Assembly: GCA_947084965.1 (NCBI GenBank)
Contig: CAMTUG010000001.1
Span: 409,301 to 473,300 of the forward strand
Reading direction: 5' to 3'
Source of the DNA: an uncultured Parcubacteria group bacterium
Lineage (GTDB): Bacteria; Patescibacteriota; Patescibacteriia; UBA9934; CAMTUG01
Length of the DNA stretch: 64,000 nt
Shown piece after piece: positions 8,996 through 52,408 of the stretch. Below the pieces are notes generated by a model. The model was not told the DNA's origin and did not search any database. It saw nothing but the letters and a program-made list of their open reading frames with translations. The first letter of the stretch is position 1. Each line of letters opens with the position of its first letter. The translations under genes and the position numbers were made by a program.

Positions 8996-9007
8996 GCATC
9001 GATTACA

Positions 9008-12280: not shown

Positions 12281-12307
12281 ATCGTGTGAGGGTCGTCGGA
12301 GTGCCGA

Positions 12308-13009
12308 CTACCTCGGGGGCGGCGGGGGTGGGGGGACCGCCACGACCTTGAGCGAGGCGGTGACGACCGGGTCCTTCGGCGTGAGCGTCAGGAGGCCGGT
12401 CATCGGGTCGCCGCGCTTGGTCTTCGGCTCGTAGAGGTCGACGCCGAGCAGGGTGAAGCCGACCTCGGTTCCGACCAGCGCCGTGGGACGGACGGAGCAG
12501 ACGAGGTCCACCCGGACCTCGCTGCCGGTCGGCGCCTTCTCGGGCGTCGGCCAGCGCAGTCCCATGCCGCCGGCGGTGTTGGGGAGGTAGCCGATCGACT
12601 TGTCGTCGCGGCCGGGGTACACCACCACGTGGCACAGCTCGAGGGTCTGCTGGGCCAGGGACTCGACCGGGGGCGCACCGGGTGGGAGCTCGGCGTTGAA
12701 GGGATCGACGATCCACTTCGCCCCGGAGCCGTCGCGGACCCACACCGCCATCTTGACATGGGGCACCGTGAAGACCTCGAACTGGTCCGCGGTGATGATC
12801 CACGTCCCGACGACGACGTTCTCGGCTCCGGGCCGGGCCTCCGCCGGCTTGTTCTCCGGCTCCTCCAGCTTGTAGGTGATGGGGACGTTGTCTTCGGCCC
12901 GGTCGTGCCAGTTGTCGCGCGCCATGTGCTTGGCGTGCCACTTGTGGAACCAGGGGCCAGCTTCTGCCGTCGGGGTGACGGCGACCATCAGGACGAGAGA
13001 CAGAATCAT
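12308..13009 (-). CDS. High-GC secreted protein of unknown function with a C-terminal poly-proline tail
   Basis: 233 aa with signal peptide MILSLVLMVAVTPTAEA and no recognisable catalytic motif. It ends ...VVAVPPPPPPPR. Third codon positions are strongly G/C. A GGAGG RBS sits 7 nt upstream of the ATG. Confidence 0.55.
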   Translation of the reverse strand: MILSLVLMVAVTPTAEAGPWFHKWHAKHMARDNWHDRAEDNVPITYKLEEPENKPAEARPGAENVVVGTWIITADQFEVFTVPHVKMAVWVRDGSGAKWIVDPFNAELPPGAPPVESLAQQTLELCHVVVYPGRDDKSIGYLPNTAGGMGLRWPTPEKAPTGSEVRVDLVCSVRPTALVGTEVGFTLLGVDLYEPKTKRGDPMTGLLTLTPKDPVVTASLKVVAVPPPPPPPR

Positions 13010-31214: not shown

Positions 31215-33197
31215 CTATTCTGCCGCATCCACTTCCTCTGGTGATTCAGCGATCAGGTAATCAGCAAGATTCATGCGGATCGAATCGGTCAGACTCCCGG
31301 CATTGAAGAAGATCTCTTCGTTTTCTTTAAGCCGTTGATCCATGTGCGTGACGAGGCCGAGCACGGACCCGAATGGAGGAACAGATCCCGGAACGCAGGA
31401 GGTCACCTCAATCACCTCTTCTGGAGAGGCAAAACTGAAGCGTTCACCGATGATCTTCCCGACTTTTTTCTGATCAAGTTTGCAATCGTCCGGTAAAACG
31501 AAATGGTAAAACTTCCCCGTTTTCTTTCCTTTGACAATGATCGCTTTCGCCCCTTGATGGTGCGGACGCTTCGCTGGATCAAACCCAAGCGCTTCGTCCG
31601 AATCCTCCGGGCGCGAACCGTGATGCTTGGTGATATAGGCGATTTTTTTCTCTTCCAACCGCTGTTTAATCGCCCCAAAAACATCGTCGGTTTTCTCGCG
31701 TTTCATGGACACAGATTCGTCGACAGGTGCTTCTGGCTTAAGCGTCGGAAAGAGAATAACCTCCTTAATGCTGTGATTGCCTGAGAGAATAGCGCAAAGA
31801 CGATCGATACCCATGCCATAACCAGCTGCCGGTGGCATACCGATCTTCAGCGCTTCGATGTAGTCATGATCAACACGATGCGCATCTTCGCTCCCCTGCT
31901 CGCGGAACGCTTCCTGTTCTTCGAACCGTTCAAGCTGTTCGAGTGGATCGTTTAATTCGCTCCAACCATTAATCACTTCCATCCCCTTCACCAGGAGCTG
32001 AACGTTCTCGGCCTTTTCTGGATCATCTTTCGAACGCTTGGCGAGCGGCTTCATCGCTGACGGATATTCAAAAACAAAGGTCGGTTGAATGATATTCACA
32101 CGGACACGTTTTTTCCAAACCTCATCGCAGAGCTCGCCGAATCCAACAATCCCCTCTTCGTTAATCTGACAACGCTTCATCTCTGCACGCAATGCTTCTT
32201 CTGTATTCGCCACTGAAAGATTAATTCCTGTATCTTTTAGAACAAGATCATAAAAGGAAGCACGAGCGATCTTTGAGAAATCGAGCAGATCTTCGCCGTG
32301 GGTAATTTGCATTGCTCCACCAGTTGCTGCTTTGACACAAGCCATCAACAATCCTTCCAGATGATCGATCATTTGATCACGATCAGTGTATGCCGAGTAA
32401 CACTCGACTTGAGTGAATTCCGGATTGTGCTGAAAGCTGATTCCTTCGTTGCGGAAACAACGTGCAAGTTCAAAAACCTTTTCAAATCCTCCGACCATGC
32501 AGCGCTTTAAATACAGCTCAGGAGCAATACGCAAGTAAAGATCGGCATCGAGGGCATTATGATGGGTCACAAACGGACGCGCCTCCGCACCACCAGCAAG
32601 CGGCTGAAGAATCGGCGTTTCAACTTCCATGAACCCTTCGTCATGCAAAAATGTACGGACCGCATGCACAACACGCGAACGCATTTTAAAAACTTCGCGC
32701 ACCGTCGGGTTGCTGGCCATATCGAGATAGCGCTTTCGATAGCGCACCTCGGTGTCCGACAAGCCGTGCCACTTTTCTGGTAGGGGTAACAATGTTTTGG
32801 TTAATAGGCGGACTTCGGAAACCAAAACGGTCGGCTCCTCCGTTTTCGTCAGATAAGCGACCCCGCGCACTTCTATAAAATCCCCATGATCGAAATGATC
32901 ATGGAAAAATTGATAACGTTCTTCACCGATGTCATCCCGTTTGAGGGCGATCTGCGTGCCACCGAAATCGTCTTCCAGCGAAACAAAGGTCATCCCACCA
33001 TGTTTACGCACAGCGAGCATGCGTCCAACGAGCGTCAACGGCTGCTGAGAATCGACAAGATCACGAAAAACGGCATTGAATTGCGCTGTTGTGTGCGTGC
33101 GCACTGCTGACGTCGGGTAAGGATTGATTCCTTTGGCCCGCAGGTCTGCAAGCCGCGCCCGTCGTGCGCCTTCTTCTTCGATCATATTATTCAACAC
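31215..33197 (-). CDS. lysS: Lysine--tRNA ligase (class II) fused to a C-terminal YbaK/ProX-like deacylase domain
   Basis: The LysRS core (...FRNEGISFQHNPEFTQVECY...GMGIDRLCAIL...ILFPTLKP) is followed by a ~185-aa extension ...KAIIVKGKKTGKFYHFVLPDDCKLDQKKVGKIIG...SCVPGSVPPFGSVLGLV...FFNAGSLTDSI that matches the YbaK pattern (LDLKK..G...GGISPLG...SGG.RG). Confidence 0.85.
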   Translation of the reverse strand: MLNNMIEEEGARRARLADLRAKGINPYPTSAVRTHTTAQFNAVFRDLVDSQQPLTLVGRMLAVRKHGGMTFVSLEDDFGGTQIALKRDDIGEERYQFFHDHFDHGDFIEVRGVAYLTKTEEPTVLVSEVRLLTKTLLPLPEKWHGLSDTEVRYRKRYLDMASNPTVREVFKMRSRVVHAVRTFLHDEGFMEVETPILQPLAGGAEARPFVTHHNALDADLYLRIAPELYLKRCMVGGFEKVFELARCFRNEGISFQHNPEFTQVECYSAYTDRDQMIDHLEGLLMACVKAATGGAMQITHGEDLLDFSKIARASFYDLVLKDTGINLSVANTEEALRAEMKRCQINEEGIVGFGELCDEVWKKRVRVNIIQPTFVFEYPSAMKPLAKRSKDDPEKAENVQLLVKGMEVINGWSELNDPLEQLERFEEQEAFREQGSEDAHRVDHDYIEALKIGMPPAAGYGMGIDRLCAILSGNHSIKEVILFPTLKPEAPVDESVSMKREKTDDVFGAIKQRLEEKKIAYITKHHGSRPEDSDEALGFDPAKRPHHQGAKAIIVKGKKTGKFYHFVLPDDCKLDQKKVGKIIGERFSFASPEEVIEVTSCVPGSVPPFGSVLGLVTHMDQRLKENEEIFFNAGSLTDSIRMNLADYLIAESPEEVDAAE

Positions 33198-33645
33198 TCA
33201 AAATCTTGTAACTCATCTTACCAGACGGGACGGTTACCTCAACGGTGTCGCCTGCCTCCTTACCAACAAACGATACGCCGATCGGCGATTCATTGCTGAT
33301 CTTCCCCGCGAGCGGATCGGCCTCCGTCGCACCGACCATCTGAAACGTTTTCTCCACGCCGCCGACCTTCACCTGAAAGGTGCTCCCGAGGTTAATCTTT
33401 CCTCCGGATTTTTTCACAACAACGCTGGCGTTGCGAATCATATCTTCCAGATCAAGAATGCGTGACTCATTCTGTGCCTGATCGTCCTTGGCAACATGAT
33501 ATTCAAAATTCTCGGAAAGATCGCCGAGTTCCTTGGCGGAAGCGATGCGCGAAGTGATCTCCAGCCGATTGACCGTCTTGCGCATGGCGAGCTCATCTTT
33601 GAGCTGCTGCAGACCTTCTTCTGAAACGTACGTCACTTGACTCAT
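33187..33645 (-). CDS. greA: Transcription elongation factor GreA
   Basis: MSQVTYVSEEGLQQLKDELAMRKTVNRLEITSRIASAKELGDLSENFEYHVAKDDQA... The track ORF is extended upstream of the real start. Confidence 0.85.
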   Translation of the reverse strand: MSQVTYVSEEGLQQLKDELAMRKTVNRLEITSRIASAKELGDLSENFEYHVAKDDQAQNESRILDLEDMIRNASVVVKKSGGKINLGSTFQVKVGGVEKTFQMVGATEADPLAGKISNESPIGVSFVGKEAGDTVEVTVPSGKMSYKILSVE

Positions 33646-33679
33646 AAAACCTATGCTTTGAACAGAAGAGACCAGCCCA

Positions 33680-35737
33680 TCAGACGGGCCGGTCAGCATC
33701 ATTAGATCCATCGTAATTCGCTGGAAGATTCGCGTCAAGTGGATTCTCCACAGGGGTGGGGGTGGGTGCAGGTGGCGGTGAAGCGATCTCAAATTGTGTA
33801 AACCACCAAGCCAGAATCTCCTGGGCAATCGGAACAGCGACAGCATCACCGGCCCCACCCTCTTCTATCAATACGGTGATCACCACCTGCGGATCCTCAA
33901 ATGGCGCGAACCCGGTAAACCAGGCGTGGGTTTTGTAGAGGCTTGACCACTGGGCGGTACCGGTCTTCCCCGCCGACGTCACCGGCAGAGAGAGCAATCT
34001 ACGAGCACTACCTGAAGTAACGGCTTGGCGCATCCCGTCGCGCACAATCGCAATTGTCTGAGCATCGACGACCTGTTCGCTCTGAACGATCGGCTCGGCC
34101 AGAGCCTCCCCCGCCTCACTTTCGAGAGCGTGCATCACCCGCGGCTGGTAGAGCGTTCCCCCGTTTGCCACCGTCGATGTCATGGAAGCGATCTGCAGAG
34201 GGGTAACGAGCAAATCTCCTTGACCGATGGAAACGTTGTACGTGTCCCCGATATACCAACGCTCGCCCTTCGCCTCTTCCTTCCACACCTTACTTGGTAA
34301 AAACCCACTCGCTTCATTTGGCAGATCAACCCCAAGAACCGTTCCGAATCCGAACCGAGCCGCGTACGTCATGATCCGCTCAACACCGAGTCCAACAAAT
34401 CCGTCATAGCCGCCACCGATGTAGTAAAAAAAGGTATTAATGGATTCGGCCAGAGCACGCGTCACATTTGTTATCCCATGACCGCCTAGGTTCCAATCAT
34501 AAAAACTCCAAATTCCAACATGGATCGAGCCGGTTGAGAGAAAGCTTGTGGAGCGATTGATCAACCCCTCGGCAAGGGCAGCCGCGGCTACGACTGGCTT
34601 AAACGTAGAGCCCGAAGGAAACTGACCTGAGATCGCGCGATTAAAAAGGGGGCGATTCACATCTTCAAGAAGGGCGGTGTACGTTTTCTGATCAATCCCC
34701 TCCGCAAATTTATTGCTATCGAAGGCCGGCGTTGAGACGAGGGATAAGATCTCTCCCGTGGTCGGGTCCATCATGACGACCGCCGCCCGAGCCGATGTTC
34801 CCAAATGCCCCTCGAGCACCTGTTCAATCTTAGCGGTCAGTGTGGCGTCAATGGACAAGATGACGTTTTGGCCATCGATCGGGTCTTCTTTGGTGATGAT
34901 CGCAGCAGCACGCCCGAGCGCGTCCACTTCCACAATCTTGCGTCCGTACGTCCCACGCAAAACAGACTCATAGGATTCCTCCACCCCAAGCTTGCCGATA
35001 TTATCGATCATCCGATATCCGCTTTCGTCCAGCCGATCGTATTCTTCGGCGCTGATCCGCCCTGTGTAGCCGAGAACGTGTGAGAGCGTTGGAATCTCAT
35101 CCGTCTTATACGTGCGAATTGTTGCCGATTCCACTTGCACCCCAGGAAAGCGATCCATTTGTGTCATGAGCGAAAGGGCTGCGTCGTACGAAAGCGCTTC
35201 ATTTAGTACAACCGGATCTTTTTCGTTGGCAGCACTTCCGAGAATGGAGAGCATCTGCGGGACAGGTGTACCGGTCACTTCAGCCAGTTCCTCCAAAAAA
35301 GCCACACGCTGATCGATCACTTTTGGAATCGTGGCCGGCGTCGCCACCAGCCGAAAGGTCGAAGCGTTTTCCGCGAGCGGAGTGCGATTGCGGTCGTAAA
35401 TAATCCCCCGCTTTGAGGGGATCATTTCAATTCGCACGCGATTGCCTTCCGCCTCGGTGCGAAACTCATCCCCAAGGACGACTTGTAAATGAGCGGCCTT
35501 GGCCAAAAATAATCCAAATACCGTTGTTAAAACGATCGCGCCGATACGCAAACGGCGATCGGAAAGGGTCACCCCAATAAATTGGCGCGTCGGAGGATCA
35601 TCGCGCAGACGTGCCGACTCGGCTAATGATTCGTCAAAAAAAGAACCGGCCGCATATTCGCGCACCACCCCAAGCGTCGGATCATCTCCGAGCAAAAAAA
35701 CGGCGCTCTCCGGTTTTTTTCGACGAAAGAAGTTCAT
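33680..35737 (-). CDS. mrdA: Penicillin-binding protein 2 (peptidoglycan D,D-transpeptidase)
   Basis: Motifs STFKP, SGS and KTGTA. It lies immediately downstream of mreBCD. Confidence 0.8.
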   Translation of the reverse strand: MNFFRRKKPESAVFLLGDDPTLGVVREYAAGSFFDESLAESARLRDDPPTRQFIGVTLSDRRLRIGAIVLTTVFGLFLAKAAHLQVVLGDEFRTEAEGNRVRIEMIPSKRGIIYDRNRTPLAENASTFRLVATPATIPKVIDQRVAFLEELAEVTGTPVPQMLSILGSAANEKDPVVLNEALSYDAALSLMTQMDRFPGVQVESATIRTYKTDEIPTLSHVLGYTGRISAEEYDRLDESGYRMIDNIGKLGVEESYESVLRGTYGRKIVEVDALGRAAAIITKEDPIDGQNVILSIDATLTAKIEQVLEGHLGTSARAAVVMMDPTTGEILSLVSTPAFDSNKFAEGIDQKTYTALLEDVNRPLFNRAISGQFPSGSTFKPVVAAAALAEGLINRSTSFLSTGSIHVGIWSFYDWNLGGHGITNVTRALAESINTFFYYIGGGYDGFVGLGVERIMTYAARFGFGTVLGVDLPNEASGFLPSKVWKEEAKGERWYIGDTYNVSIGQGDLLVTPLQIASMTSTVANGGTLYQPRVMHALESEAGEALAEPIVQSEQVVDAQTIAIVRDGMRQAVTSGSARRLLSLPVTSAGKTGTAQWSSLYKTHAWFTGFAPFEDPQVVITVLIEEGGAGDAVAVPIAQEILAWWFTQFEIASPPPAPTPTPVENPLDANLPANYDGSNDADRPV

Positions 35738-36234
35738 GAAGTACGAATCAGGAAGAGTGATTGCAGGAGACGCGACAGGCGCCGACTAACGATAAAGGTA
35801 AGTGCGAGAACAAAGGCAAAGAGAAAAACTTGTATCAGAGGAGCACGTAGTTGTAGTTCTGAAGGATCAATAATTAGCAGGACGGCACCGTTCGCAAGAT
35901 GCAGAGCGAGATCCATGGATAAACCTAATCCCATCATGGCATAGAACGATCGATTGGTGAACACCTTTTTCTGAAGAAGAACGCCCGTTAAACCGGCACT
36001 ACTGTAGGCAAAGGTGATCAGGTGTCCAGGCGTACCCATCAGATCAAGCAGGATCCCCCCAATAATCATCCAGATACAGCCGACATTTGGACGCACAAAG
36101 TGAGCGATCAGGACCCCAAAGAGCAGAACGAGCGGAAAAGATCTGATCGGCTCCGGAAAAGAGGCAAGAAACGAGAGCTCTGTTGTGACTACCCCTATCA
36201 GCAACAAAAAGCTAAGGAAGGCCTGGAGGATCAT
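35734..36234 (-). CDS. mreD: Rod shape-determining protein MreD
   Basis: 166-aa polytopic membrane protein between mreC and pbp2. Confidence 0.55.
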   Translation of the reverse strand: MILQAFLSFLLLIGVVTTELSFLASFPEPIRSFPLVLLFGVLIAHFVRPNVGCIWMIIGGILLDLMGTPGHLITFAYSSAGLTGVLLQKKVFTNRSFYAMMGLGLSMDLALHLANGAVLLIIDPSELQLRAPLIQVFLFAFVLALTFIVSRRLSRLLQSLFLIRTS

Positions 36235-37022
36235 AAAATTTCAACAACGCTCAGATGCTCAAGGTCGATCAGCGGTTCGACAAGTACGGCCTGAAACGGA
36301 TCATGCTCATCCTTAAGCACTTCGCGCACAACACCGATTACGAGCCCGGGAGGGATTTGCGGATCGAGCCCTGACGTTGCCAAAAGCTGATCAATGGCGA
36401 CGTCCGCTGACTGCGGAATAAAGGAAACCTTAAGTAGAACGCCCCCCTGTCCTTCAGCAATCCCGATCGTTTCGGTCGCATTCATGAGCTTCGCTCCCAC
36501 ATTACTTGATTCGTCAATCAGGAGTCTGACCACAGAAGCGTGTGGTTCGACGGCAACCACCACCCCAACAAACATCCCGTCACCAGAAATGACCGCCGCA
36601 CCGACCCGACTCCCCTCCTCCGACCCTTGGTCCACTAACAAAGTATCACCTTCAATTTCGCCGCTACGTCCCATGACCTGAGCGAGCAGTCCGTTCCTAT
36701 CGGACGTCTGCATGTAGTTCAGCAGGGCCTGCAGCTCTTTGACCTGGCCCTGCAGCTCCTGATAGTCAACCCGGTCAATAGCAAGCGCAGTTAACTGTCG
36801 CTTCAACTCCGTGTTCTCCTCTTCGAGCTTCAGACGTGAATAAAAAATGTCGTCAGTGAAGCGAGAAATACTTGTTCCAGCCGAAAACAGTCCAGCCCGA
36901 AGGGTGTGAAAAGCTACAACAACCGGGGTCGTGTTCCGCAATAAAAGAACGAGCAAGAAAAACCCGGCGATCACCGCCGCAAACGTGAGCAATCGACCGT
37001 GACGAAGGACACGTACGCGCAT
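36231..37022 (-). CDS. mreC: Rod shape-determining protein MreC
   Basis: N-terminal TM, coiled coil (...TELKRQLTALAIDRVDYQELQGQVKELQALL...), beta-rich C-terminus. Confidence 0.65.
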   Translation of the reverse strand: MRVRVLRHGRLLTFAAVIAGFFLLVLLLRNTTPVVVAFHTLRAGLFSAGTSISRFTDDIFYSRLKLEEENTELKRQLTALAIDRVDYQELQGQVKELQALLNYMQTSDRNGLLAQVMGRSGEIEGDTLLVDQGSEEGSRVGAAVISGDGMFVGVVVAVEPHASVVRLLIDESSNVGAKLMNATETIGIAEGQGGVLLKVSFIPQSADVAIDQLLATSGLDPQIPPGLVIGVVREVLKDEHDPFQAVLVEPLIDLEHLSVVEIL

Positions 37023-37025
37023 AGA

Positions 37026-38075
37026 CTAAGATCCATGGCCTGTAGCAGAAGGAAGTTGAACTTCGTTTAGTAACGTTTCATCATCCAGCAAAACACCTGC
37101 GCCACGAACAACGGCTGTCAGTGGGTCTTCGATAATTCTGACAGGGATCGCCGTTTCCTTGGCGATGACTTCATCGAGTCCACGCAACAAGGCCCCACCG
37201 CCAACAAGCGCGATCCCCCGCTCATAAATGTCGGCAACCAGCTCCGGAGGGGTGACTTCAAGCGTTGCTTTTATGTTATCAACAATAACCCGGATGGAAC
37301 GATAGATCGCTTCGCGAATCTGTCCGTCATTGACGATAATCTGTTTCGGTAATCCAGAAATCAGATCGCGGCCACGCATCTCTGTTTGCAGAACTTCTTT
37401 TTGTGGAGCGGCAGATCCAATAGCAATCTTGACCTCTTCAGCCACACGTTCCCCGAGCAATAAATTAAAGGTATCACGGGCGTATTGCACGATATTTTTG
37501 TTCAGTTCGTCCCCGGCTATAGCCAAGGCCTTCCAGGTCACGACCCCAGAGAGGGAGAGCACAGCGATCTCGGTCGTGCCACCGCCGATGTCTACGATCA
37601 TATGACCGACGGATTCCGTGATCGGAATGCGGCCGCCGAGAGCGGCGAGGATCGGCTCTTCTACCAAATACACTTTGCGCGCTCCCGCAGAAAGCACTGC
37701 GTCTTCCACCGCCTTGCGCTCCACTTCCGTAATCTCAAGCGGCACGCCGATCACGACGCGCGGACGCGGAACGATCGTGAACGTTTCTTCATGCACCTTA
37801 TCGATGAAATACTTGAGCATCTTTTCGGTCACCTCGAAATCTGAAATGACCCCTTTTTGTAACGGCTTGACCGTGATGATGTGCGGTGGCGTTTTGCCAA
37901 GCATGTCCTTGGCATCATGCCCAACCGCCAAAATTTGATCGGTACGTGTGTTGATCGCAACAATAGAGGGCTCGTTAATAACGATCCCCTTTTCTTTGAC
38001 ATAGACCAAGGTGTTGGCCGTTCCAAGGTCAATCCCGATATCCTTTGAGAACTGACCAAAAAATTTGTTCAACAT
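37026..38075 (-). CDS. mreB: Rod shape-determining protein MreB
   Basis: ...IGIDLGTANTLVYV... is the actin-fold ATPase motif; 349 aa. Confidence 0.9.
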   Translation of the reverse strand: MLNKFFGQFSKDIGIDLGTANTLVYVKEKGIVINEPSIVAINTRTDQILAVGHDAKDMLGKTPPHIITVKPLQKGVISDFEVTEKMLKYFIDKVHEETFTIVPRPRVVIGVPLEITEVERKAVEDAVLSAGARKVYLVEEPILAALGGRIPITESVGHMIVDIGGGTTEIAVLSLSGVVTWKALAIAGDELNKNIVQYARDTFNLLLGERVAEEVKIAIGSAAPQKEVLQTEMRGRDLISGLPKQIIVNDGQIREAIYRSIRVIVDNIKATLEVTPPELVADIYERGIALVGGGALLRGLDEVIAKETAIPVRIIEDPLTAVVRGAGVLLDDETLLNEVQLPSATGHGS

Positions 38076-38132
38076 ATCAACCGCCCTCCATTAAGGACTC
38101 TATTGTACCACTTAGTCCCTCCTAGGCAAGGC

Positions 38133-38259
38133 GGCCGAGACCTCTAAAATTGATGAGATGTCGGTGCACGGGGTGACGTCGAACGAGACGTACAACTGGT
38201 ACGTTGAGGAGACGTTGGGGCCCCGTAAACCGACAGATCGCAATTTTAGAGGTCTCGGG
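38133..38259. repeat. About 127-nt imperfect palindrome with 18-bp perfect terminal arms
   Basis: GGCCGAGACCTCTAAAATTG...CAATTTTAGAGGTCTCGG. The interior is self-complementary (ACGTCgaacgaGACGT, GGGGCCCC, central GTACaactgGTAC). It lies between mreB and the upstream membrane-protein gene. Confidence 0.45.
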
Positions 38260-38632
38260 GTCGGGAGGTTTGAACAAAGGCCTCCAGAAAGGCAAAAAAG
38301 AGGATCACGAGCCCGATCGACCACCAACGCAGATAGCCAAAGACCGCCATGGTCAAAGCGGCGAGAATAATGAGGGAAAAAAAGAGTGCTTGGCGAAAAG
38401 CGCGATGGACTTCGCGCGACACAAGCTCACTCTTATGGATAACCAGCACACGAAGGACCGTTCCGATCATGGTCAGAAGACCGACGAGCGCAACAAATAA
38501 GGTTGCAAAAAAGGCGGCTTTTGGAACAACCCCCGAGCTCGTCGGATCAATCAAGAATAAAACAACGAGCCAAGCACTGATGGCGGCGAGCGTTCCGATG
38601 CTCATGAAAAGTAAGTACTGTTTAAAGCTCAT
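38246..38632 (-). CDS. Small polytopic membrane protein, unknown function
   Basis: 128 aa, four hydrophobic helices, no motif. Confidence 0.35.
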   Translation of the reverse strand: MSFKQYLLFMSIGTLAAISAWLVVLFLIDPTSSGVVPKAAFFATLFVALVGLLTMIGTVLRVLVIHKSELVSREVHRAFRQALFFSLIILAALTMAVFGYLRWWSIGLVILFFAFLEAFVQTSRPRDL

Positions 38633-38936
38633 ACTCCTCCATCGAACGAATCTGAACCAGGATTGTTTTCACGTCCGCGCGCGGATCCATCGTGATAATC
38701 GCTTCACGGATACCTGGCTCGAGTAACGTTACCTCGTGTGCAGCAACACTATTCTTACAAGCAATTCTCAACAACCCCTGATGAAACGAGACAACGCGTA
38801 CCATCCCCTGCATCTCTTTTACCAGGGCTGCCTGCAAAAACTGTCGTGCGGTCATCACCGCCGAACTGGCCGAAATCTGTCGCGTGAGTCCGGCGCGACC
38901 GATCGCTTTCTGCAGCATCGATTTAAGTTCGAGCAT
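38622..38936 (-). CDS. DUF721/DciA-like small protein (tentative)
   Basis: MLELKSMLQKAIGRAGLTRQISASSAVMTARQFLQAALVKEMQGMVRVVSFHQGLLRIACKNSVAAHEVTLLEP has a DUF721-like pattern. It lies downstream of the helicase. Confidence 0.3.
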   Translation of the reverse strand: MLELKSMLQKAIGRAGLTRQISASSAVMTARQFLQAALVKEMQGMVRVVSFHQGLLRIACKNSVAAHEVTLLEPGIREAIITMDPRADVKTILVQIRSMEEYEL

Positions 38937-38937
38937 A

Positions 38938-41901
38938 TTAGAGTTGGCGGAATTCGCAAATCTCTTTAAAGTCGCACCAGTTGCACATGAATCCCGGGGT
39001 TGGTTTGAAGTCCGAGGTGCGGATCGCCTGGGCCGTTTCAACGATGTCCTCGGCGAGCGCCGCTAACTCCTCTTCCGTTGCTAAGAACGAAACACGGGCG
39101 TTATTTTCAAGATAGTGATACGTCAATTTCACTGGCTTAAGCGGCGGGTTGAAGCACTGGACAGCAGCGATCTGATAGAGCATCAACTGACGCTTATCAT
39201 CAGAAGAGAGCTCTTCTTTTGGCGTCCCTGTCTTGTAATCAATGATCTCTACCCCGCCCTCAATCGTATCAACGCGGTCAATTCTACCACGAACGACGAC
39301 GTCCCCAAACTTGACTGTGAACCCCTTTTCGAGAAAAAGTGGCGACGGGCGATCTGCCTTGATCTGACCGTAATAGTCCATCAACGCCTTACGCCCTTTG
39401 GCTCGATAGTTCTCGCGAGCAACGTCGTTTTCATACCACTCATCGATCCAGGATGCGTCGTAGAGATCAGAGAGCTCTTCAATCGTCACCGGGATCGCGT
39501 CTCTGTTTTCCTCTTTCCTCTTTCCTCTTCCCTCGAACAGCGAAACTTGCTTGACACTCGTCCGCTCAATCCACAATTCGAAAAACTTCTGCAAGGTGTT
39601 GTGCATTGTTTTTCCGAATGATAACGAGTGCCGACCAAACACCGGCACGTGCAAGATGTGGGCAAACTTATACTGCAATGGACAGGTGGTGAACGCGGCG
39701 ATCTGCGTGAAGCTAAAGGACTTCGGAGGCAGGATGTGGGCGTTGGTGAGGTCGTAGCGATGCGGTGGAGCTACGCTCTCAATACTATTCATTGTTACGG
39801 GGCTTAACAGACTTTCGCTTGCAGCGACGTCTGTCACTCCGTAGCCAAGTTCAACAAGAAACCGCGAAAGTTTTTTCTTGCGCGCCCCGCCGTAATCTTC
39901 GGCTGAAGTGAGATAAACGGCATCCTTCGCGCGCGTCAAAGCGACGTACATCAACCGCCGTTCTTCTTCGAGGTGCACGTCCCCTTCCGGGATCTTCTCT
40001 TTAATCAAGGCGTCTGAGAGCGGAATGGCGTCGTGCTTTTCGCTCGTCGGAAATCGACGATCCACCATGCTCACGATAAACACATGACCGAACTCGAGGC
40101 CTTTTGATCCGTGAACGGTCATGATCTTCACTGTCTCTGGCCCTTCTTCGGGATCCATCTTCAACGCCCCTTCGTCACCAGACGATTGTTCGTGTTCCAG
40201 CTCTTCCAGGAACCGATGCAGCGTCGTATCCGCCGTGATCGATTCAAAGGACTTCATCCGTTCGTAAAACTGCTGAAGCAGACGAAACTCCTCTTGCTGA
40301 ATGCGTTCCGGACTCATCTTTACAAACCCGAGTAATCCAGATTCTTTTATCACATCCACAAACAACTCGCTCACCGGCTTGCGCTTAGCCGCATCGCGCC
40401 AGCGGGCAACAAGCGTCAACAAATGCGCCGACTGCTCAACGGTTTCGCGATCAACACCACGGATGGCGGTCGGATGTTCAAGAATCTGATTCAACGCCTT
40501 CCCTGCCCGATACGATTCATGGGTGATCTTCACTAACTCCTCTGGCTTCACCCCCAGCGTTTCATGCGACAAAATGCGATACCAACTTTGCGAGTGGAAC
40601 GGATGATCGATCACACGCAGCAGAGCGAGTGCGTCTAAGATTAACGGCTTGCGATACAAGCCACGCAACGCCATAAACTGATACGGCACAGCTTGGCGCT
40701 CCAGATGCCGGATGAACGGTTCGGCTGTATCGTTGGCACGGACCAAAATGGCGATTTCAGACAAGGCGACGCCTCCTTTATGGAGCGCCAAGATTCGATC
40801 AACAACGGCTTTGGCTTCATCCTCAAGCGCGTGGCAGTGAATGTGCTCGATCGTTCCTGTCGCCTCGCGCCCAGAGGTCAGTCGCTTGGAAAGTCCTTCG
40901 CCGAGCTGAGCCTCAAGGCGATTGGGGTTATTCTGTTTAATAAACTCATACGCACAATCCAAAATCGCCTGGCCGCTACGATAGTTTTCTGTGAGGATCA
41001 CTTTCTTGGAGTTTGGGTAGTCAGAATCAAACTGCAAAATATTTGACAGCGCCGCGCCACGGAACTTGTAGACAGACTGATCATCATCCCCAACGACCGT
41101 CAGATTATTCTTCGGCGCACTGAGCATCTTCACTAATTCATACTGCGCCCAGTTGGTATCCTGAAACTCATCAACCAACACATATTTGAACTGCCCCTGG
41201 TATTCGGCCAGAATCTTCGGTCGCGTTTTAAACAGCTTTAACGTGTAGGCGATGAGATCTCCAAAATCAAGCGCGCTGTTTTCGAGTAACATCTGCTGAT
41301 AGACGTGGTAGGCATTGGCGATCTCCTCAAGCCGCGAAAGCTCCGTGGCATCAATTCCCCCGGCTTGGGTCGAGTCCTTGTCTGCTTTTCGTCCTTCAAC
41401 GTAGGCGAGATATTCGTCCGGCGTGATGTTTTCGTCCTTGGCGCGTGAGAAATGCTGCAAGAGCGCATGAATAAACTTTGTCGGATTTCCTGCTGGGCGA
41501 TAATAATCCAAGTTGAAACGATCGAAGTTCTGGCGGACGAGGAGCCAAGCGTCGGTCTGATTCAGTAATTTGAAATCATTCGGCACACCGATATCAAGAG
41601 CGTGCGCTTTTAAAATGCGTTCGCAAAAGGAGTGAAAGGTCGAAATCCAAAGGTCCACATACCCGATTGGCAGCAAACGATCGACACGTTCTTCCATTTC
41701 CGCCGCCGCCTTTTCGGTAAAGGTGAGGGCGAGGATCTCATCGGGCTTTGCTTTCCCCTGCTCAATCAAATAAGCGATACGATGGGTAATGACCGTTGTT
41801 TTGCCCGTCCCAGCCCCAGCAATAATCATCAGCGGGCCCTGGTCGTGCATGACCGCCTCAAGCTGGGCCTTATTCAGTTTTTCAAGGAGGTTGTCTTGCA
41901 T
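38938..41901 (-). CDS. UvrD/PcrA-family helicase fused to a C-terminal RecB/Cas4-like PD-(D/E)xK Fe-S nuclease (AddA/AdnB-like)
   Basis: Walker A ...IIAGAGTGKTTVI... plus UvrD motifs. The C-terminal nuclease has ..RIDRVD...IIDYKTG.. and a four-Cys cluster (CPLQY...CNWCDFKEIC). ATG at 41901 (MQDNLLEKLNKAQLEAV). Confidence 0.8.
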   Translation of the reverse strand: MQDNLLEKLNKAQLEAVMHDQGPLMIIAGAGTGKTTVITHRIAYLIEQGKAKPDEILALTFTEKAAAEMEERVDRLLPIGYVDLWISTFHSFCERILKAHALDIGVPNDFKLLNQTDAWLLVRQNFDRFNLDYYRPAGNPTKFIHALLQHFSRAKDENITPDEYLAYVEGRKADKDSTQAGGIDATELSRLEEIANAYHVYQQMLLENSALDFGDLIAYTLKLFKTRPKILAEYQGQFKYVLVDEFQDTNWAQYELVKMLSAPKNNLTVVGDDDQSVYKFRGAALSNILQFDSDYPNSKKVILTENYRSGQAILDCAYEFIKQNNPNRLEAQLGEGLSKRLTSGREATGTIEHIHCHALEDEAKAVVDRILALHKGGVALSEIAILVRANDTAEPFIRHLERQAVPYQFMALRGLYRKPLILDALALLRVIDHPFHSQSWYRILSHETLGVKPEELVKITHESYRAGKALNQILEHPTAIRGVDRETVEQSAHLLTLVARWRDAAKRKPVSELFVDVIKESGLLGFVKMSPERIQQEEFRLLQQFYERMKSFESITADTTLHRFLEELEHEQSSGDEGALKMDPEEGPETVKIMTVHGSKGLEFGHVFIVSMVDRRFPTSEKHDAIPLSDALIKEKIPEGDVHLEEERRLMYVALTRAKDAVYLTSAEDYGGARKKKLSRFLVELGYGVTDVAASESLLSPVTMNSIESVAPPHRYDLTNAHILPPKSFSFTQIAAFTTCPLQYKFAHILHVPVFGRHSLSFGKTMHNTLQKFFELWIERTSVKQVSLFEGRGKRKEENRDAIPVTIEELSDLYDASWIDEWYENDVARENYRAKGRKALMDYYGQIKADRPSPLFLEKGFTVKFGDVVVRGRIDRVDTIEGGVEIIDYKTGTPKEELSSDDKRQLMLYQIAAVQCFNPPLKPVKLTYHYLENNARVSFLATEEELAALAEDIVETAQAIRTSDFKPTPGFMCNWCDFKEICEFRQL

Positions 41902-41947
41902 AGATCTTCTGTATGGTATACGATTTCGGGCCACCCGTGGAGGCCCC

Positions 41948-42592
41948 ATGAGCTACAGCACCTTGTTGAGCGGAACGCACCGGCTCCTCGATGCCCTGCA
42001 GGCGCACGACCCCGCGACGCGAGAGCACAGCGAGCGAACGGGTGTCCTCGCCGCGGCCCTGGCAGCCGAGCTCAGACTCTCCCTGCGCGACCAGGCGATC
42101 CTGCGCCTCGGCGGAGCCTTGCACGATGTCGGCAAGCGCTCTGTTCCACGGGAGATCCTGACTGGCGACATGCGCTTCGTTCGCACCGATCCCCTGTTCA
42201 TCGAGCACATCATCCCCCACCCGACCGCCGGGGCGTACCTGTGCAGCCTCGAACGGATCGATGATGAAGTGATTCAAGTGATCGTCGAGCACCATGAACG
42301 ACTGGACGGTCTCGGCTACCCCTTCCGGATGAAGGCAGGTCAGATCAACTGGCGGTCGATGTTCGTCTCGATCGCCGACATGTTCGACGCCATGACCGAC
42401 ACAACCCGCATCTACCGACGGCCGAAGACCGGCGATGAAGCGATCACTGTCCTGCGGGATGCCGTCGGCAACGGCGAGATCCCCGAGCATCCCGTGCGCG
42501 CCCTTCTCGCCATTCACGAACGCGGCGAAATCGCTATCCTCCACGAACGCGCCGAGCCGCTCGAAGAGATCATTCGGTACCTCTCCACCTAA
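41948..42592 (+). CDS. HD-GYP domain protein (putative c-di-GMP phosphodiesterase), high-GC island C
   Basis: ...HSERTGVLAAALAAEL...LGGALHDVGK...HHERLDGLGYP are the HD and GYP motifs. 214 aa. GC3-rich at about 64% GC versus ~50% in neighbours. GGAGG RBS. Confidence 0.7.
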   Translation: MSYSTLLSGTHRLLDALQAHDPATREHSERTGVLAAALAAELRLSLRDQAILRLGGALHDVGKRSVPREILTGDMRFVRTDPLFIEHIIPHPTAGAYLCSLERIDDEVIQVIVEHHERLDGLGYPFRMKAGQINWRSMFVSIADMFDAMTDTTRIYRRPKTGDEAITVLRDAVGNGEIPEHPVRALLAIHERGEIAILHERAEPLEEIIRYLST

Positions 42593-42607
42593 ACACCTCT
42601 CAAGACA

Positions 42608-42640
42608 AGCGCCGCCGGGGGAACTCCCCGAGCGGCGTCG
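42608..42640. terminator. Hairpin between convergent HD-GYP and atpC
   Basis: CGCCGGGGGaactCCCCGAGCGGCG followed by TCATTTC. Confidence 0.4.
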
Positions 42641-42646
42641 TCATTT

Positions 42647-43099
42647 CTAGATTTCACGATCGGGCTGAGCCGTCGTTGTTCGACCTCGTGCCCGCTTGCT
42701 AGCCACTTTAAACCGAGCCAGTTCACGCTCCATCGCTGCTGCGGCATGAGCAAAGGCCTCGGCATCCTCGTGACGCTTTTCCGTGAGGATGACCCGTGCC
42801 CGTTCACGCGCCTCTTCGATCGTTTTCAGATCAAGTTCTTCGGCACGCTCCGCCGTATCTGCCAAAATCACCACTTCGTTCCCTGGGCGCACTTCGACGA
42901 ACCCGGTCGAAACGGCTAACAACGTCTCTTCTTTCCCTGTGCGAGTCAGCACTTCACCAGCGCGCAACGTCGAAACGAGCGGGATATGATCTTTCATGAT
43001 CGTGATCTCGCCCGCGGTGGTTGGCAACGTCACTGAATCAACGGTGTCTTCGTAGACCACGCGCTCAGGAGTGACAATTTTGAGATTGATTTTTGGCAT
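42647..43099 (-). CDS. atpC: ATP synthase epsilon subunit
   Basis: MPKINLKIVTPERVVYEDTVDSVTLPTTAGEITIMKDHIPLVSTLRAGEV... Confidence 0.85.
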   Translation of the reverse strand: MPKINLKIVTPERVVYEDTVDSVTLPTTAGEITIMKDHIPLVSTLRAGEVLTRTGKEETLLAVSTGFVEVRPGNEVVILADTAERAEELDLKTIEEARERARVILTEKRHEDAEAFAHAAAAMERELARFKVASKRARGRTTTAQPDREI

Positions 43100-43107
43100 A
43101 GGAAATT

Positions 43108-44541
<1,434 letters not shown>

Positions 44542-49594: not shown

Positions 49595-50479
49595 CTACTT
49601 CGTCTGGGTGGTGGGGATCGGTTGCATCTCTGGGCCGGAGACGCCGCCGAACTTGGCGAAGCCGCAGCAGCCGCAGAACAGGACGAGGAGGAACCCGACG
49701 ATGATGATCAGCGGCAAGTTGCCCGCGATCGCGCCGCTGATGGTCGGCTGGGTCGGGGTGCCGGTGGCGCTCGTCGCCTTCCCTGCTTCCTCGCGACCCT
49801 TCTTGGCGGCGTCCTTCCGCTTCTTGCGCTCCTCCGCGCGTTCGTCCCGCGCGGCCTGCTGATCGGCCGTCGGGTTGGCCCAACGGTCCCGGGCCCGAGC
49901 GACGGCGGCGTCCTGGCGAGCACGCGCCGCGGCAGCTTCCGCCGCACGCGCGACCTCGGCTTCGTGGGCCGCGGCGGCCGCCTTGGCTTCGGCGGCCTTG
50001 CGATCGTCCTCGGCCTTCTTCGCGGCGGCGCCAGGGTCGACGGGCTTCACGGTCTCGGCCGGCGTCTCGGGCGCGCCAGCCTTCTTCGCGGCAAGGGCAG
50101 CGGCTGCTGCGGCTCCGGCTGCGCCAGCGGCGACCTCCTCGTCGAGGTCCGGGATGCCGTCCCCGTCTTCTTCGACGACCGCCTCCTCGGGCTCCTCCTC
50201 TTCCTCGCTCGGCTTCTCGGCCTTGACGCCGGTCAGCTTCTCGAGGATCGGGTGGACGACCTCGGCCATGGCGCCGATCACGCTGCCCAGCGTGCCGGCC
50301 TCCTTGGCGTCGAGGAGCTCGGTGAGGAGCTTCTGCGAGGGCTCGTCGAGCACGTCGGCCATTTCGTCGGCCTTGACGGCGTCCGCGGTCCAGGCGGCGC
50401 TGAGGTCCGACCACTCCTGGTCGGTGAGCTCCTCGCCATCCAGACACTTCTTCAACAGGGCCTTGATCTTCGGGTCCAT
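49595..50479 (-). CDS. High-GC tail-anchored membrane protein of unknown function (294 aa)
   Basis: ATG at 50479 (MDPKIKALLKKCLDGEELTDQEW...) with a GGAG RBS. It has an acidic linker (EEEEEPEE), an Ala-rich helix (AEAKAAAAAHEAEVARAAEAAAARARQDAAVARARD), a single C-terminal TM (LPLIIIVGFLLVLFCGCCGF) and a short tail. The track start at 50635 is upstream of the promoter. Confidence 0.55.
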   Translation of the reverse strand: MDPKIKALLKKCLDGEELTDQEWSDLSAAWTADAVKADEMADVLDEPSQKLLTELLDAKEAGTLGSVIGAMAEVVHPILEKLTGVKAEKPSEEEEEPEEAVVEEDGDGIPDLDEEVAAGAAGAAAAAALAAKKAGAPETPAETVKPVDPGAAAKKAEDDRKAAEAKAAAAAHEAEVARAAEAAAARARQDAAVARARDRWANPTADQQAARDERAEERKKRKDAAKKGREEAGKATSATGTPTQPTISGAIAGNLPLIIIVGFLLVLFCGCCGFAKFGGVSGPEMQPIPTTQTK

Positions 50480-50564
50480 TCGGTACTCCGTGGGTGGGGG
50501 TAGATGTCCTGACTGCGGGATCCTTGACGCCTGAAGCGTCGGAACGGGAGAAATCCAGCCGCCA

Positions 50565-50593
50565 AATATAGCATAAAAAACCGATTTTGTCAA
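50565..50593 (-). promoter_or_regulatory. Sigma70-like promoter for island B minus gene (TTGACA-17-TATATT)
   Basis: The minus strand reads TTGACAaaatcggttttttatgcTATATT; the leader of about 85 nt contains the hairpin GACGCttcagGCGTC. Confidence 0.45.
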
Positions 50594-50657
50594 TCCAGCC
50601 CAACAATAAGGGCAAAAAGCGAAAAAGAGGCACAAATAAAGCCAAAATCTTATCTAG

Positions 50658-50812: not shown

Positions 50813-52408
50813 ATGGCGACCCTCGCCGAACAGCTCGCCGCGCAAGCGGCCAACGCCAGCAAGAAGAACGACAAGGGCAACAAGAAGGGCGGTCTCGCGG
50901 CGCAGGCCGCGGCCGGCAACAAGCCCGACGCCAAGGCGCAGCAGGAGGCCCGGGCGGCGGCGTTCGCCGACGCGCAGAACGACCTGGCCGCCGACGCGGT
51001 GATGAAGATCGGGGAGCTCGCCCAGGGCAACCGCCGCGCCCAGGCGGACCTGATCTCCCGCATCGTCCGCAACGGAGAGAAGCTCGCCATCTTCGAGGTC
51101 AGCCCCCGGCAGGAGGAGGGACGGCACGGCGAGGGCCTCAAGTGGGTCGGCGACACCACGATCGACGGCGTCGGGGAGACGGTCGGCTTCACCAGCCACA
51201 TCATCCTCTTCGACCTGGTCGCCGGGAAGAAGGTGTGGTGCTGCCTCGTGCAGGACAAGAAGCGCAAGGACAGCTACAGCGCCTTCCCCCTCGGCCTCTG
51301 CGAGGTGTCCCTCATCAACAACTGGAACGGGAACCGTTCGAAGGAGGACCCGACCATCACCGTCATCACCGGCTCGATCCGCGACGCCCACCGCAGCGTC
51401 AAGCTGACGGTCCGCGAGATCGTCGAGCTGCGTGGGCGGGGCGGGGGTCAGCACCTCGCCTGGCTCAAGGGCTTCCGCCTGGTGAAGCACGAGCGGTGCC
51501 AGCCCTTCGCGCTCAACGTCAAGTCCGTGTTCAAGATCGAGCTGGGCGAGCGCGGCGCCACCCTCCGGTTCGTCTCCACGGCCGAGGCCTTCCAGGGCTT
51601 CGATCACAAGGCGATCGCGATCGGCGGGGCCTCGAGCAAGCCGGTCGATCCGCTCGCGGCGGTCGGCAAGGTGACGATCGAGGAGGTCAACCCGGACATC
51701 GTCCACGGGCTGATCAACAAGCTGAAGGGAGAGAAGAAGACGGACGAGCACCCCACCGTGAAGGCGATGAAGGCGGCCGGGCGCAAGGTGTCGGACGACA
51801 TGGCCGGGCGCGAGGGCCCCATCAACTCGGTCCTGGAGAAGGAGGTCAAGCCGGCGCTCCTCGAGGCGCTGGACGTGGAGATCGAGAAGCGCGAGAAGCT
51901 CCTCGGCGACCTCCCCACCCTGCGCGTGTTCCTGGGGCTCACCACCTCGGACGACATGCGCAGCACCCACCGCAACATCAGCAACCGGCGCGACGCGCCG
52001 AAGGAGGGCAAGGACTCGCCCGCCGAGTTCATCGCCGAGAAGACCAAGATCCCGTTCACCTGGTCCCTCTTCGGCCGCTACTTCCGGGCCGGACTCCTCG
52101 CCAAGATCGCCCAGGCGGAGGAGAGCCACGATCTGGCCGTCAAGATCGTGGTGCTCGAGAAGGAGGTCGAGGTCAACGCCGAGGACATGCTCGGGTGGCC
52201 CGACTGGACCAAGGAAGGGATCGCCGCCCGACTCGAGGCGATCGAGAAGGGCGACGTGCGCGGGGCCGTCTGGGTGGTGAACCAGGCGCTCCGGCAGCAC
52301 AAGGTGGAGATCGACCTCGGCAAGGAGGGCCACCTCGACATCGTGAAGGCTGCGGTGAAGACCGTCGCCGACGCGGTGATCGCCAAGATCACGCCCGCCG
52401 CCAGCTAG
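50813..52408 (+). CDS. High-GC 531-aa soluble protein of unknown function
   Basis: ATG at 50813. The N-terminal ~60 aa are A/Q/K-rich low complexity (MATLAEQLAAQAANASKKNDKGNKKGGLAAQAAAGNKPDAKAQQEARAAAF...). No P-loop, HTH or catalytic motif is recognised by eye. Strong GC3 bias. Confidence 0.6.
   Translation: MATLAEQLAAQAANASKKNDKGNKKGGLAAQAAAGNKPDAKAQQEARAAAFADAQNDLAADAVMKIGELAQGNRRAQADLISRIVRNGEKLAIFEVSPRQEEGRHGEGLKWVGDTTIDGVGETVGFTSHIILFDLVAGKKVWCCLVQDKKRKDSYSAFPLGLCEVSLINNWNGNRSKEDPTITVITGSIRDAHRSVKLTVREIVELRGRGGGQHLAWLKGFRLVKHERCQPFALNVKSVFKIELGERGATLRFVSTAEAFQGFDHKAIAIGGASSKPVDPLAAVGKVTIEEVNPDIVHGLINKLKGEKKTDEHPTVKAMKAAGRKVSDDMAGREGPINSVLEKEVKPALLEALDVEIEKREKLLGDLPTLRVFLGLTTSDDMRSTHRNISNRRDAPKEGKDSPAEFIAEKTKIPFTWSLFGRYFRAGLLAKIAQAEESHDLAVKIVVLEKEVEVNAEDMLGWPDWTKEGIAARLEAIEKGDVRGAVWVVNQALRQHKVEIDLGKEGHLDIVKAAVKTVADAVIAKITPAAS

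Follow-up and report, generated by a model that had tools for sequence, protein, structure and literature searches.

In a 64-kb window (64,000 nucleotides) of contig CAMTUG010000001.1 from an uncultured Parcubacteria group bacterium, a 214-residue protein of the HD-GYP family is encoded between a helicase-nuclease gene and the atp operon. We propose that this protein is an active, sensor-less HD-GYP phosphodiesterase of the binuclear class that acts on a 3'3' cyclic dinucleotide, with cyclic di-GMP (c-di-GMP) as the likeliest substrate; from the sequence and the predicted structure, we put the probability of this reading at about 0.6. The predicted enzyme would be a cytoplasmic metallo-phosphodiesterase with a Fe/Mn-type centre, and its likeliest reaction would be the conversion of c-di-GMP to pGpG, perhaps to GMP. 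Its gene would be transcribed alone from a 46-nt divergent spacer that it shares with the helicase gene, and a strong hairpin would separate it from the convergent atp operon. The gene would have been inserted once into a variable slot between atpC and the helicase gene in an ancestor of Uhrbacteria-like Patescibacteria, retained under selection on the active site, and replaced in one sister lineage.

Family, fold and active site

Pfam searches assigned the protein to HD_5 (76.2 bits with a cut-off of 27.2, E = 3.3e-21, residues 15-174 of 214) and HD (51.3 bits with a cut-off of 22, E = 1.7e-13). No other domain was found, in agreement with the description of a stand-alone HD-GYP gene in an earlier note made from the DNA letters alone. 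Two NCBIfam entries, HDIG and a response-regulator c-di-GMP phosphodiesterase, were matched only in part and at the domain level. A phmmer search of 1.84 billion representative sequences returned 82,495 homologues at E ≤ 1e-3. The best phmmer matches in the Protein Data Bank (PDB) were PmGH from Persephonella marina (4MCW, 3e-17), V-cGAP3 from Vibrio cholerae (5Z7C, 1.4e-14), DvhD (9RBZ), PA4781 from Pseudomonas aeruginosa (4R8Z, 3.7e-09) and Bd1817. The AlphaFold model, computed with 49 homologues as input, was all-helical with 13 helices and had a mean predicted local distance difference test score (pLDDT) of 95.7 and a predicted template modelling score (pTM) of 0.92. The top 11 matches of this model in a Foldseek search of the PDB were all HD-GYP structures, with template modelling (TM) scores of 0.73 to 0.77 to DvhD, PmGH and PA4781.

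A REC domain was absent by Pfam, which sets the protein apart from the RpfG family of REC-HD-GYP proteins, and the model showed neither a signal-peptide-like N-terminus nor a transmembrane segment. The PHROGs search gave no match and PADLOC gave only weak, generic similarity to Cas3-HD (E ≥ 1e-6), and a phage or defence origin was rejected on these grounds. HD-GYP domains, the class II c-di-GMP phosphodiesterases (Pfam HD_5/HD, PROSITE PS51832), are said to be rarely stand-alone. However, many metagenomic proteins of 190-225 residues also consist of this single domain, and thus the architecture alone is not unusual. Such short proteins from metagenomes and metagenome-assembled genomes (MAGs), for example P0007, P0035, P0075 (Phycisphaerales) and P0339 (Pyrinomonadaceae), share the size and architecture of the window protein at 33-42% identity, although most carry Y-T-R and K-P-G/GTQFDP elements that it and its closest relative, P0127, have lost, and none is known from the slot between atpC and the helicase gene. 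Taken by its sequence, the window protein is a divergent, otherwise ordinary member of the well-known HD-GYP family.

We mapped the active site by a HMMER alignment to PmGH (4mcw), the reference active c-di-GMP HD-GYP (4MCW/4MDZ), which was the best PDB sequence match and had a TM score of 0.75. Conservation was taken from two alignments, A1 and A3, of ~50 homologues (one with 49 sequences), and the roles of the residues from Galperin & Chou 2021 and Bellini et al. 2014. Seven of the eight metal ligands of PmGH were retained (H27, H59, D60, H91, H115, H116 and D144), all in invariant or nearly invariant columns, so the metal-binding residues of the HD domain stood up to alignment. An HSERTG motif was present at H27, and residues 115-125 (HHERLDGLGYP) fit the consensus HHExh(D/N)GxGYP, with the GYP tyrosine Y124 corresponding to Y285 of PmGH. 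R154-I-Y-R157 matched RxY[K/R] and aligned with R314...K317 of PmGH, preceded by a one-residue insertion (AMTDTTR).

Two elements of PmGH were missing. The position of E185, which bridges the third metal in PmGH, was occupied by Ala23 (A-T-R), so the E/D-T-G signature of the trinuclear subgroup was absent and the protein is predicted to belong to the binuclear class. The trinuclear subgroup includes PmGH, TM0186 and PA4108, which have an acidic residue at this position (Galperin & Chou 2021; Bellini et al. 2014). In addition, K235-P-G237 of PmGH was replaced by G73-D74-M75, followed by a three-residue insertion. The columns K73, L77 and E81 were nearly invariant in other HD-GYPs but different in the window protein (A1, A3), whereas the other 47 aligned HD-GYPs kept the conserved Leu-Lys spacing and most of them K-P-G. 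The altered loop (residues 72-84) had a pLDDT of ~88 in the model. The earlier claim of complete HD and GYP motifs therefore holds for the motifs and the metal ligands but not for the KPG loop and the E185 equivalent. PmGH also differs in that its N-terminal domain is GAF-like and its iron centre trinuclear. PA4781 resembles the window protein in its HD-GYP fold (TM score of 0.74) and in lacking the Glu/Asp ligand of the third metal, for which reason its centre is expected to be bimetallic. However, it carries an N-terminal REC domain, whereas the window protein (~24% identical) has no sensor domain, no KPG and a loop three residues longer.

In the phmmer search, only one close relative was found, P0127 (196 residues, 45% identity, 152 bits). 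Other single-domain hits reached at most ~105 bits, and higher totals came from proteins matching in multiple stretches. P0127 is encoded on contig L082 of the Logan assembly of run SRR28842990. When 5.8 billion clusters were searched by word index, no homologue exceeded 42% identity. A profile of the two sequences, run against 5.8 billion clusters, revealed no third member, with a drop after P0127 from 385 to 132 bits. Neither this profile search nor a scan of JGI (Joint Genome Institute) metagenome contigs with the two-sequence alignment gave a further orthologue (nothing above 39-42% identity). The loop of P0127 (SPEHFRRCDPVF) has also lost KPG and is three residues longer, and both orthologues share F-x-R-x-D-P-[LV]-F and have G-[NR]-G-E-[IL]-P in place of the usual GTQFDP. 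The HHERLDGLGYP motif of P0127 was identical save for one change of L to T; the protein has R-L-F-R at the position of RxY[K/R] and Asp (D-T-H) at that of Ala23. Every catalytic and Gua1-binding residue of the window protein was kept in P0127, Gua1 being the first guanine of the substrate. That the catalytic set was retained despite divergence to 45% identity favours a working enzyme over an imported gene in decay.

Substrate and catalytic activity

The GYP tyrosine and RxY[K/R] serve in ring-phosphate and Gua1 binding and in c-di-GMP specificity (Galperin & Chou 2021). Both are intact in the window protein, and c-di-GMP is thus the likeliest substrate. The main chain of KPG binds guanine 2 (Gua2), and flexibility there has been linked to the use of cyclic GMP-AMP (cGAMP) (Galperin & Chou 2021). 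The enzyme might accordingly have an altered substrate; 3'3'-cGAMP, linear dinucleotides such as pApG or pGpG, and cyclic (oligo)nucleotides from the host or from phages are candidates. In an episymbiont without c-di-GMP synthesis of its own, it could then serve in nucleotide salvage or in protection from cyclic-nucleotide immunity. We regard this alternative as doubtful, yet as a serious rival. The replaced KPG and the longer loop, present in both orthologues and unlike those of the other 47 aligned HD-GYPs, count in its favour. V-cGAP3, a 3'3'-cGAMP-specific enzyme and the second-best PDB sequence match, demonstrates that an HD-GYP may have a cyclic dinucleotide other than c-di-GMP as its substrate. 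Bacteria of the candidate phyla radiation depend on salvage, which also counts for an altered substrate, as does the lack of a GGDEF gene in any DNA available. However, the RxY[K/R] pair of the window protein is Arg and Arg, whereas the known cGAMP-specific enzymes have Gln or Asn as the second residue; the window protein thus keeps RxYR and not the RxxQ/N of other cGAMP-preferring HD-GYPs. V-cGAP3 also differs in its tandem HD-GYP modules and its lower structural similarity (Foldseek E = 1e-3). The lack of a signal peptide and of defence-system neighbours, with only the generic Cas3-HD similarity in PADLOC, likewise speaks against this alternative.

The source of the substrate was sought by several searches. 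No GGDEF, EAL or PilZ gene was found in the window by a six-frame motif scan, and none by Pfam on 40 window open reading frames (ORFs) and in the precomputed Pfam annotation of the Logan contigs. A tblastn search with a single GGDEF seed (P0093) gave no hit either, be it in the window or across the 1.31 Mb of related loci, although this is a weak negative. The earlier observation that the window holds no GGDEF or EAL gene was thus reproduced. The DNA inspected for cyclases amounts to ~14% of a contig of at least 476 kb, which tempers what this absence says for an altered substrate. Diguanylate cyclase genes have been reported in ultra-small groundwater MAGs, where they were enriched in attached populations (PMC9938205). 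Their occurrence also speaks against an altered substrate, and it makes the statement that c-di-GMP machinery would be unexpected in such a genome an overstatement. Our literature search found no paper specifically on c-di-GMP or HD-GYP proteins in Patescibacteria.

Silent or receptor HD-GYPs have been reported (DvhD, Bd1817, X. campestris RpfG and HnoD), and the window protein might similarly be a catalytically silent nucleotide receptor or protein-interaction module. Its best structural match, DvhD from Desulfovibrio vulgaris (TM score of 0.77), is a c-di-GMP receptor, inactive HD-GYPs are common (Bellini et al. 2014), and two determinants of substrate and metal binding have been lost (KPG and E185). 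However, in the aligned sequence of DvhD, LSQVGK stands where HDxGK would be expected, leaving no HD dyad, and NEHPDG takes the position of HHExDG; Bd1817 lacks the GYP tyrosine. The window protein, in contrast, keeps all seven binuclear ligands, Tyr124 and RxYR. The catalytic residues are also retained in the orthologue at 45% identity, and there is neither a partner domain nor a conserved partner gene beyond the housekeeping neighbours. As no catalytic residue is missing and the whole set is conserved, we consider a silent receptor very unlikely.

Several observations weigh against an active c-di-GMP phosphodiesterase with the expression and history outlined above. The KPG loop was lost and remodelled in both orthologues, so the specificity may differ from c-di-GMP. 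The window, ~3 kb of adjoining sequence and 1.3 Mb of related loci yielded neither a cyclase (GGDEF or CD-NTase) nor a c-di-GMP receptor, and no EAL or PilZ gene either. A simple consensus scan of the surroundings of the gene gave no match to a sigma-70 promoter. A consensus scan for a canonical terminator was also negative, and the hairpin downstream of the gene has no U-tract. The GC content at third codon positions (GC3) is 0.80 in the window gene and 0.70 in that of P0127, a difference that simple vertical descent with amelioration does not explain. Finally, only two genomes with an HD-GYP gene underlie the putative history of a single gain.

The slot between atpC and the helicase gene

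The HD-GYP gene runs from an ATG at 41948 to a TAA stop at 42590-42592, with the Shine-Dalgarno sequence GGAGG at 41939-41943, 4 nt upstream of the start (Table 1). This start is supported because the N-terminus aligns with P0127 from Met1. Long ORFs also lie on the opposite strand and in other frames, but the family match is in the plus frame only, and these ORFs are a chance product of the high GC content. Both neighbours are core genes on the minus strand. The start of the helicase at ATG 41901 (MQDNLLEKL...) was the choice of the gene caller on the Logan contig and agrees with the N-terminus of the 73%-identical orthologue on contig L002, whereas the longest possible ORF would start at 41949. 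With the start at 41901, the distance of 46 nt between the divergent starts given earlier is correct.

Table 1. Coordinates of the HD-GYP gene, its active-site elements and its immediate surroundings in the 64-kb window
Feature	Coordinates	Strand	Basis
HD-GYP coding sequence, 214 aa	41948..42592	+	ORF listing, Pfam, PDB sequence matches, AlphaFold, Foldseek
A23-T-R-E-H27; A23 at PmGH E185 position, H27 = PmGH H189	42014..42028	+	H27 invariant in A1 and A3
HDVGK (H59, D60, K63), metal dyad = PmGH H221/D222	42122..42136	+	H59, D60, G62 and K63 invariant in 49-sequence alignment
Residues 72-84 (TGDMRFVRTDPLF), loop in place of KPGxLTxxE, 3 residues longer	42161..42199	+	A1 and A3; lineage-specific
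H91, metal ligand = PmGH H250	42218..42220	+	Nearly invariant column
HHERLDGLGYP (115-125), ligands H115/H116 = PmGH H276/H277, Tyr124	42290..42322	+	Motif scan; invariant or nearly invariant columns
D144 (= PmGH D305, last ligand) through R154-I-Y-R157	42377..42418	+	4mcw alignment, A3
UvrD-type helicase fused to PD-(D/E)XK nuclease, 987 aa	38938..41901	-	Divergent from HD-GYP; Pfam UvrD-helicase, UvrD_C, PDDEXK_1
atpC (F1 epsilon), last gene of atp operon	42647..43099	-	Convergent with HD-GYP; Pfam ATP-synt_DE_N
Divergent spacer between helicase ATG and HD-GYP ATG, 46 nt	41902..41947	.	Sequence; Shine-Dalgarno and palindromic GTATAC at 41916-41921
GC-rich hairpin in the gap that separates the HD-GYP stop (42592) from the convergent atpC stop (42647)	42604..42642	.	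RNA fold

The gap of 54 nt between the stops of the HD-GYP gene and atpC contains the GC-rich hairpin, which had a folding energy of -28.1 kcal/mol (z = -4.3) and was not matched in stability by any of 200 shuffled sequences. This hairpin may act as a terminator in both directions or as an insulator. The HD-GYP gene was not flanked by any mobile-element gene, repeat or tRNA, and the neighbours were housekeeping genes with no defence or phage gene among them.

The GC content steps abruptly across ~650 bp at this locus, and HD-GYPs in unexpected MAGs are often contaminants, as Galperin & Chou have warned. A GC-rich bacterial fragment might therefore have been joined into a Patescibacteria contig by contamination or chimeric assembly. 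However, the gene does not lie at a contig end, since host genes flank it at distances of 46 and 54 nt, and the independent Logan assembly of run ERR3478686 matched window positions 31948-43920 with no mismatches across both junctions. The junctions were thus reproduced by a second assembler and are not an artefact of one pipeline. Since the same arrangement also occurs in a different sample and lineage (L082), this explanation has next to no probability and is effectively refuted.

On L082 the order is lysS-greA-pbp2-mreD-mreC-mreB-orf128-dciA-helicase, followed by a 45-nt spacer, the HD-GYP gene on the opposite strand, a hairpin and atpC. The slot, orientation and geometry of P0127 thus equal those of the window gene. 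The hairpin stands at the same place but differs in sequence (stem of 13 bp, -30.3 kcal/mol, z = -4.4). The 45-nt and 46-nt spacers have ATATAC/GTATAC as their sole common element. This TATA-like box lies ~20 nt upstream of the helicase ATG and was the only conserved upstream element in both HD-GYP lineages when window positions 41902-41991 and L082 positions 9956-10045 were compared; any -35 region of the helicase would fall within the 5' end of the HD-GYP gene. L002, which has no HD-GYP, has a different region upstream of the helicase that carries TGTAAAAT.

The flanking helicase had 584 relatives, all in Patescibacteria-type MAGs, several of them labelled Candidatus Uhrbacteria. The nearest was that of L002 (73% identity), followed by others at 51-57%. 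The gene order atpD-atpC-[slot]-helicase-dciA-orf128-mreB was kept in at least a dozen of these relatives, and the HD-GYP gene was absent from their fetched DNA. Apart from L002 and L082, at least 10 syntenic relatives without an HD-GYP gene had other genes, or none, in this slot. The slot of L006 was ~124 bp long and held no gene, that of L009 held an unrelated ORF, that of L002 a different 312-residue Asp/Thr-rich ORF, and in other relatives it spanned several kilobases. Several relatives had a recurrent gene of ~134 residues in the slot. In several more distant Patescibacteria, a recurrent gene of ~121-157 residues (N-terminus like MHxCxALIIxCMDxRL...) lies directly downstream of atpC, namely at L005 702-1109, L007 8678-9082, L040 8569-8979, L054 3722-4087 and L078 4353-4826. 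Many contigs with a clear Patescibacteria gene order and helicases 50-73% identical to that of the window bear the record title "uncultured Gammaproteobacteria bacterium" or that of "Candidatus Binatia" and are probably mislabelled MAGs; they include L002, L003, L007, L008, L010 and L012 (67% GC).

In a neighbour-joining host tree of the helicase, MreB and PBP2 (1,850 ungapped columns, 300 bootstraps), the window genome, L002 and L082 formed a clade in 300/300 bootstraps, with L002 and L082 as sisters in 295/300. The core proteins differed by 13-58% among these three lineages, and the AtpC orthologues of L002 and L082 were 73% identical to that of the window. Four-fold sites at conserved residues were 28-42% identical between lineages and thus essentially saturated. 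The simplest history consistent with these sequences would be that HD-GYP was inserted once in the common ancestor of the three lineages and later replaced in L002. With only two carriers, a transfer within the clade or two separate gains could also account for the distribution. With P0127 in the identical slot of another lineage, the HD-GYP gene is not a private recent acquisition and would be an old accessory gene specific to this clade.

Composition and GC-rich accessory reading frames

The HD-GYP gene had a GC content of 63.6% (0.68, 0.43 and 0.80 at codon positions one to three), whereas the 49 other window genes had a GC content of 52.5 ± 1.8% and a GC3 of 0.595 ± 0.040. The corresponding z-scores were +6.2 for GC and +5.2 for GC3, so the GC3 profile of the window genes confirms the earlier report of ~64% GC with a GC3 bias unlike the neighbours. 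The gene of P0127 was also GC-rich (60.1%, compared to 51.4% for its locus), with a GC3 of 0.70, compared to 0.48-0.63 for its neighbours. At conserved four-fold sites, the GC content was 0.82 in the window gene and 0.62 in that of P0127.

This composition raises the question of whether this genome alone acquired the gene recently from a GC-rich donor, or had an older copy replaced recently by recombination with a GC-richer relative. Besides the z-scores above 5 and the difference at four-fold sites, such an event would fit the three other ORFs of high GC3 in the same genome, the existence of GC-rich (67%) Patescibacteria-like relatives such as L012, and the variability of the slot among relatives. 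However, the strict version is contradicted by an orthologue with unique derived characters in the identical slot of a lineage beyond synonymous saturation. No donor-like sequence above 45% identity was present among 5.8 billion clusters, 1.84 billion representatives and metagenome contigs, and the flanks held no mobile-element gene, repeat or tRNA. We therefore regard a recent acquisition by this genome as highly improbable, although a recent replacement of an older copy may have occurred. The search for a donor lineage produced no nameable candidate, the best matches outside the clade being scattered at 33-42% identity; those with names belonged to Streptomyces, Phycisphaerales, Gemmataceae, Pyrinomonadaceae and Bacillota. 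The suggestion of an independent acquisition in the earlier note thus survives in part: the gene is a compositional outlier with its own flanks, but it is neither private nor recent, as P0127 occupies the same slot of L082.

GC-rich ORFs recur at the same positions in relatives. The ORF replacing HD-GYP in the slot of L002 has a GC content of 61% and a GC3 of 0.85, and L002 and the window each have a GC-rich, Ala-rich, membrane-anchored ORF directly upstream of atpI. Because of these ORFs and the saturation of four-fold sites, high GC is no simple mark of recency. Continued exchange with GC-rich relatives, for which a 67%-GC Patescibacteria-like locus (L012) exists, and a local recombination-linked bias at hot spots are candidate causes of the higher GC of the window copy compared to that of P0127 and of the other GC-rich ORFs in this genome. 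GC-rich accessory genes flanking the atp operon look like a trait of the clade.

The three other GC-rich ORFs of the window (GC3 of 0.83-0.97) had no match in Pfam, PHROG or PADLOC and no homologue in the fetched relatives. They lie in two regions, islands A and B. Island A is a 233-residue ORF (12308-13009, minus strand; GC of 69.5%, GC3 of 0.94) whose N-terminus resembles a signal peptide and whose C-terminus carries PPPPPPPR. Pfam, PHROG and PADLOC gave no match for it, and a comparison with 82 related loci gave no homologue. Behind this ORF, at ~12255-12285, lies a hairpin of the ACCCACC...GGTGGGT type. Island B lies between atpI and tatD and has similar hairpins at ~49540 and ~52490. It comprises an ORF of 346 residues (49595-50635, minus strand) that is Ala/Glu/Lys-rich with a C-terminal membrane anchor (GC3 of 0.83), and another of 531 residues (50813-52408, plus strand; GC3 of 0.97), neither with a family match. 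Since atpI and tatD are only ~800 bp apart in the relative L009, island B is an insertion. The hairpin flanking the HD-GYP gene (GCGCCGCCGGGG...CCCCGAGCGGCG) was unlike the hairpins beside islands A and B, and only chance 10-12-mers were common to the flanks of the gene and the two islands, consistent with the earlier remark that the gene lacks the modules of these islands. On L002, a 402-residue Ala/Pro-rich membrane-anchored ORF (771-1979, plus strand; local GC of 0.67-0.76) lies just upstream of atpI, in the slot and orientation of the 346-residue ORF of the window, and the 312-residue Asp/Thr-rich ORF (8899-9837, plus strand; GC3 of 0.85) lies in the slot between atpC and the helicase gene.

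These observations allow a bolder proposal, which we consider unlikely. P0127 and the window protein might form a Patescibacteria-specific lineage in which the remodelled pocket for the second base has moved the specificity away from c-di-GMP. In a cyclase-less episymbiont, it would degrade cyclic di- or oligonucleotides derived from the host cell or from cyclic-nucleotide immune signalling, either for guanine/adenine nucleotide salvage or to blunt the signalling. The persistently GC-rich ORFs flanking the atp operon would then point to hot spots of recombination that draw on a pool of GC-rich genes.

Other genes and implications

Elsewhere in the window, a class II aminoacyl-tRNA synthetase gene (31215-33197, minus strand) encodes an unusual fusion of tRNA-synt_2, an OB anticodon domain and a C-terminal tRNA_edit domain of the YbaK/ProX type. 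After the helicase-nuclease gene lie a weak DciA-family ORF (38622-38936, minus strand; E = 1.3e-4, which does not reach the curated cut-off of Pfam) and a 128-residue membrane ORF (38246-38632, minus strand) that overlaps it by a few bases. The trio of the helicase, the DciA-like ORF and the 128-residue ORF beside mreBCD-pbp2 is conserved across many related loci.

As a methodological point, a strong anomaly in GC and GC3 alone does not prove recent transfer, because in this case an orthologue stands in the same slot of a lineage past synonymous saturation. The current understanding of the HD-GYP family is unchanged by these findings. The loss of KPG in an otherwise intact active site nevertheless offers a natural test case for the recognition of the second base by HD-GYP proteins. 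If the enzyme is active, a small Uhrbacteria-like clade of ultra-small bacteria would have long kept a cyclic-dinucleotide-degrading enzyme despite a reduced genome, which would suggest either c-di-GMP signalling in these organisms or the use of a nucleotide that they do not make.

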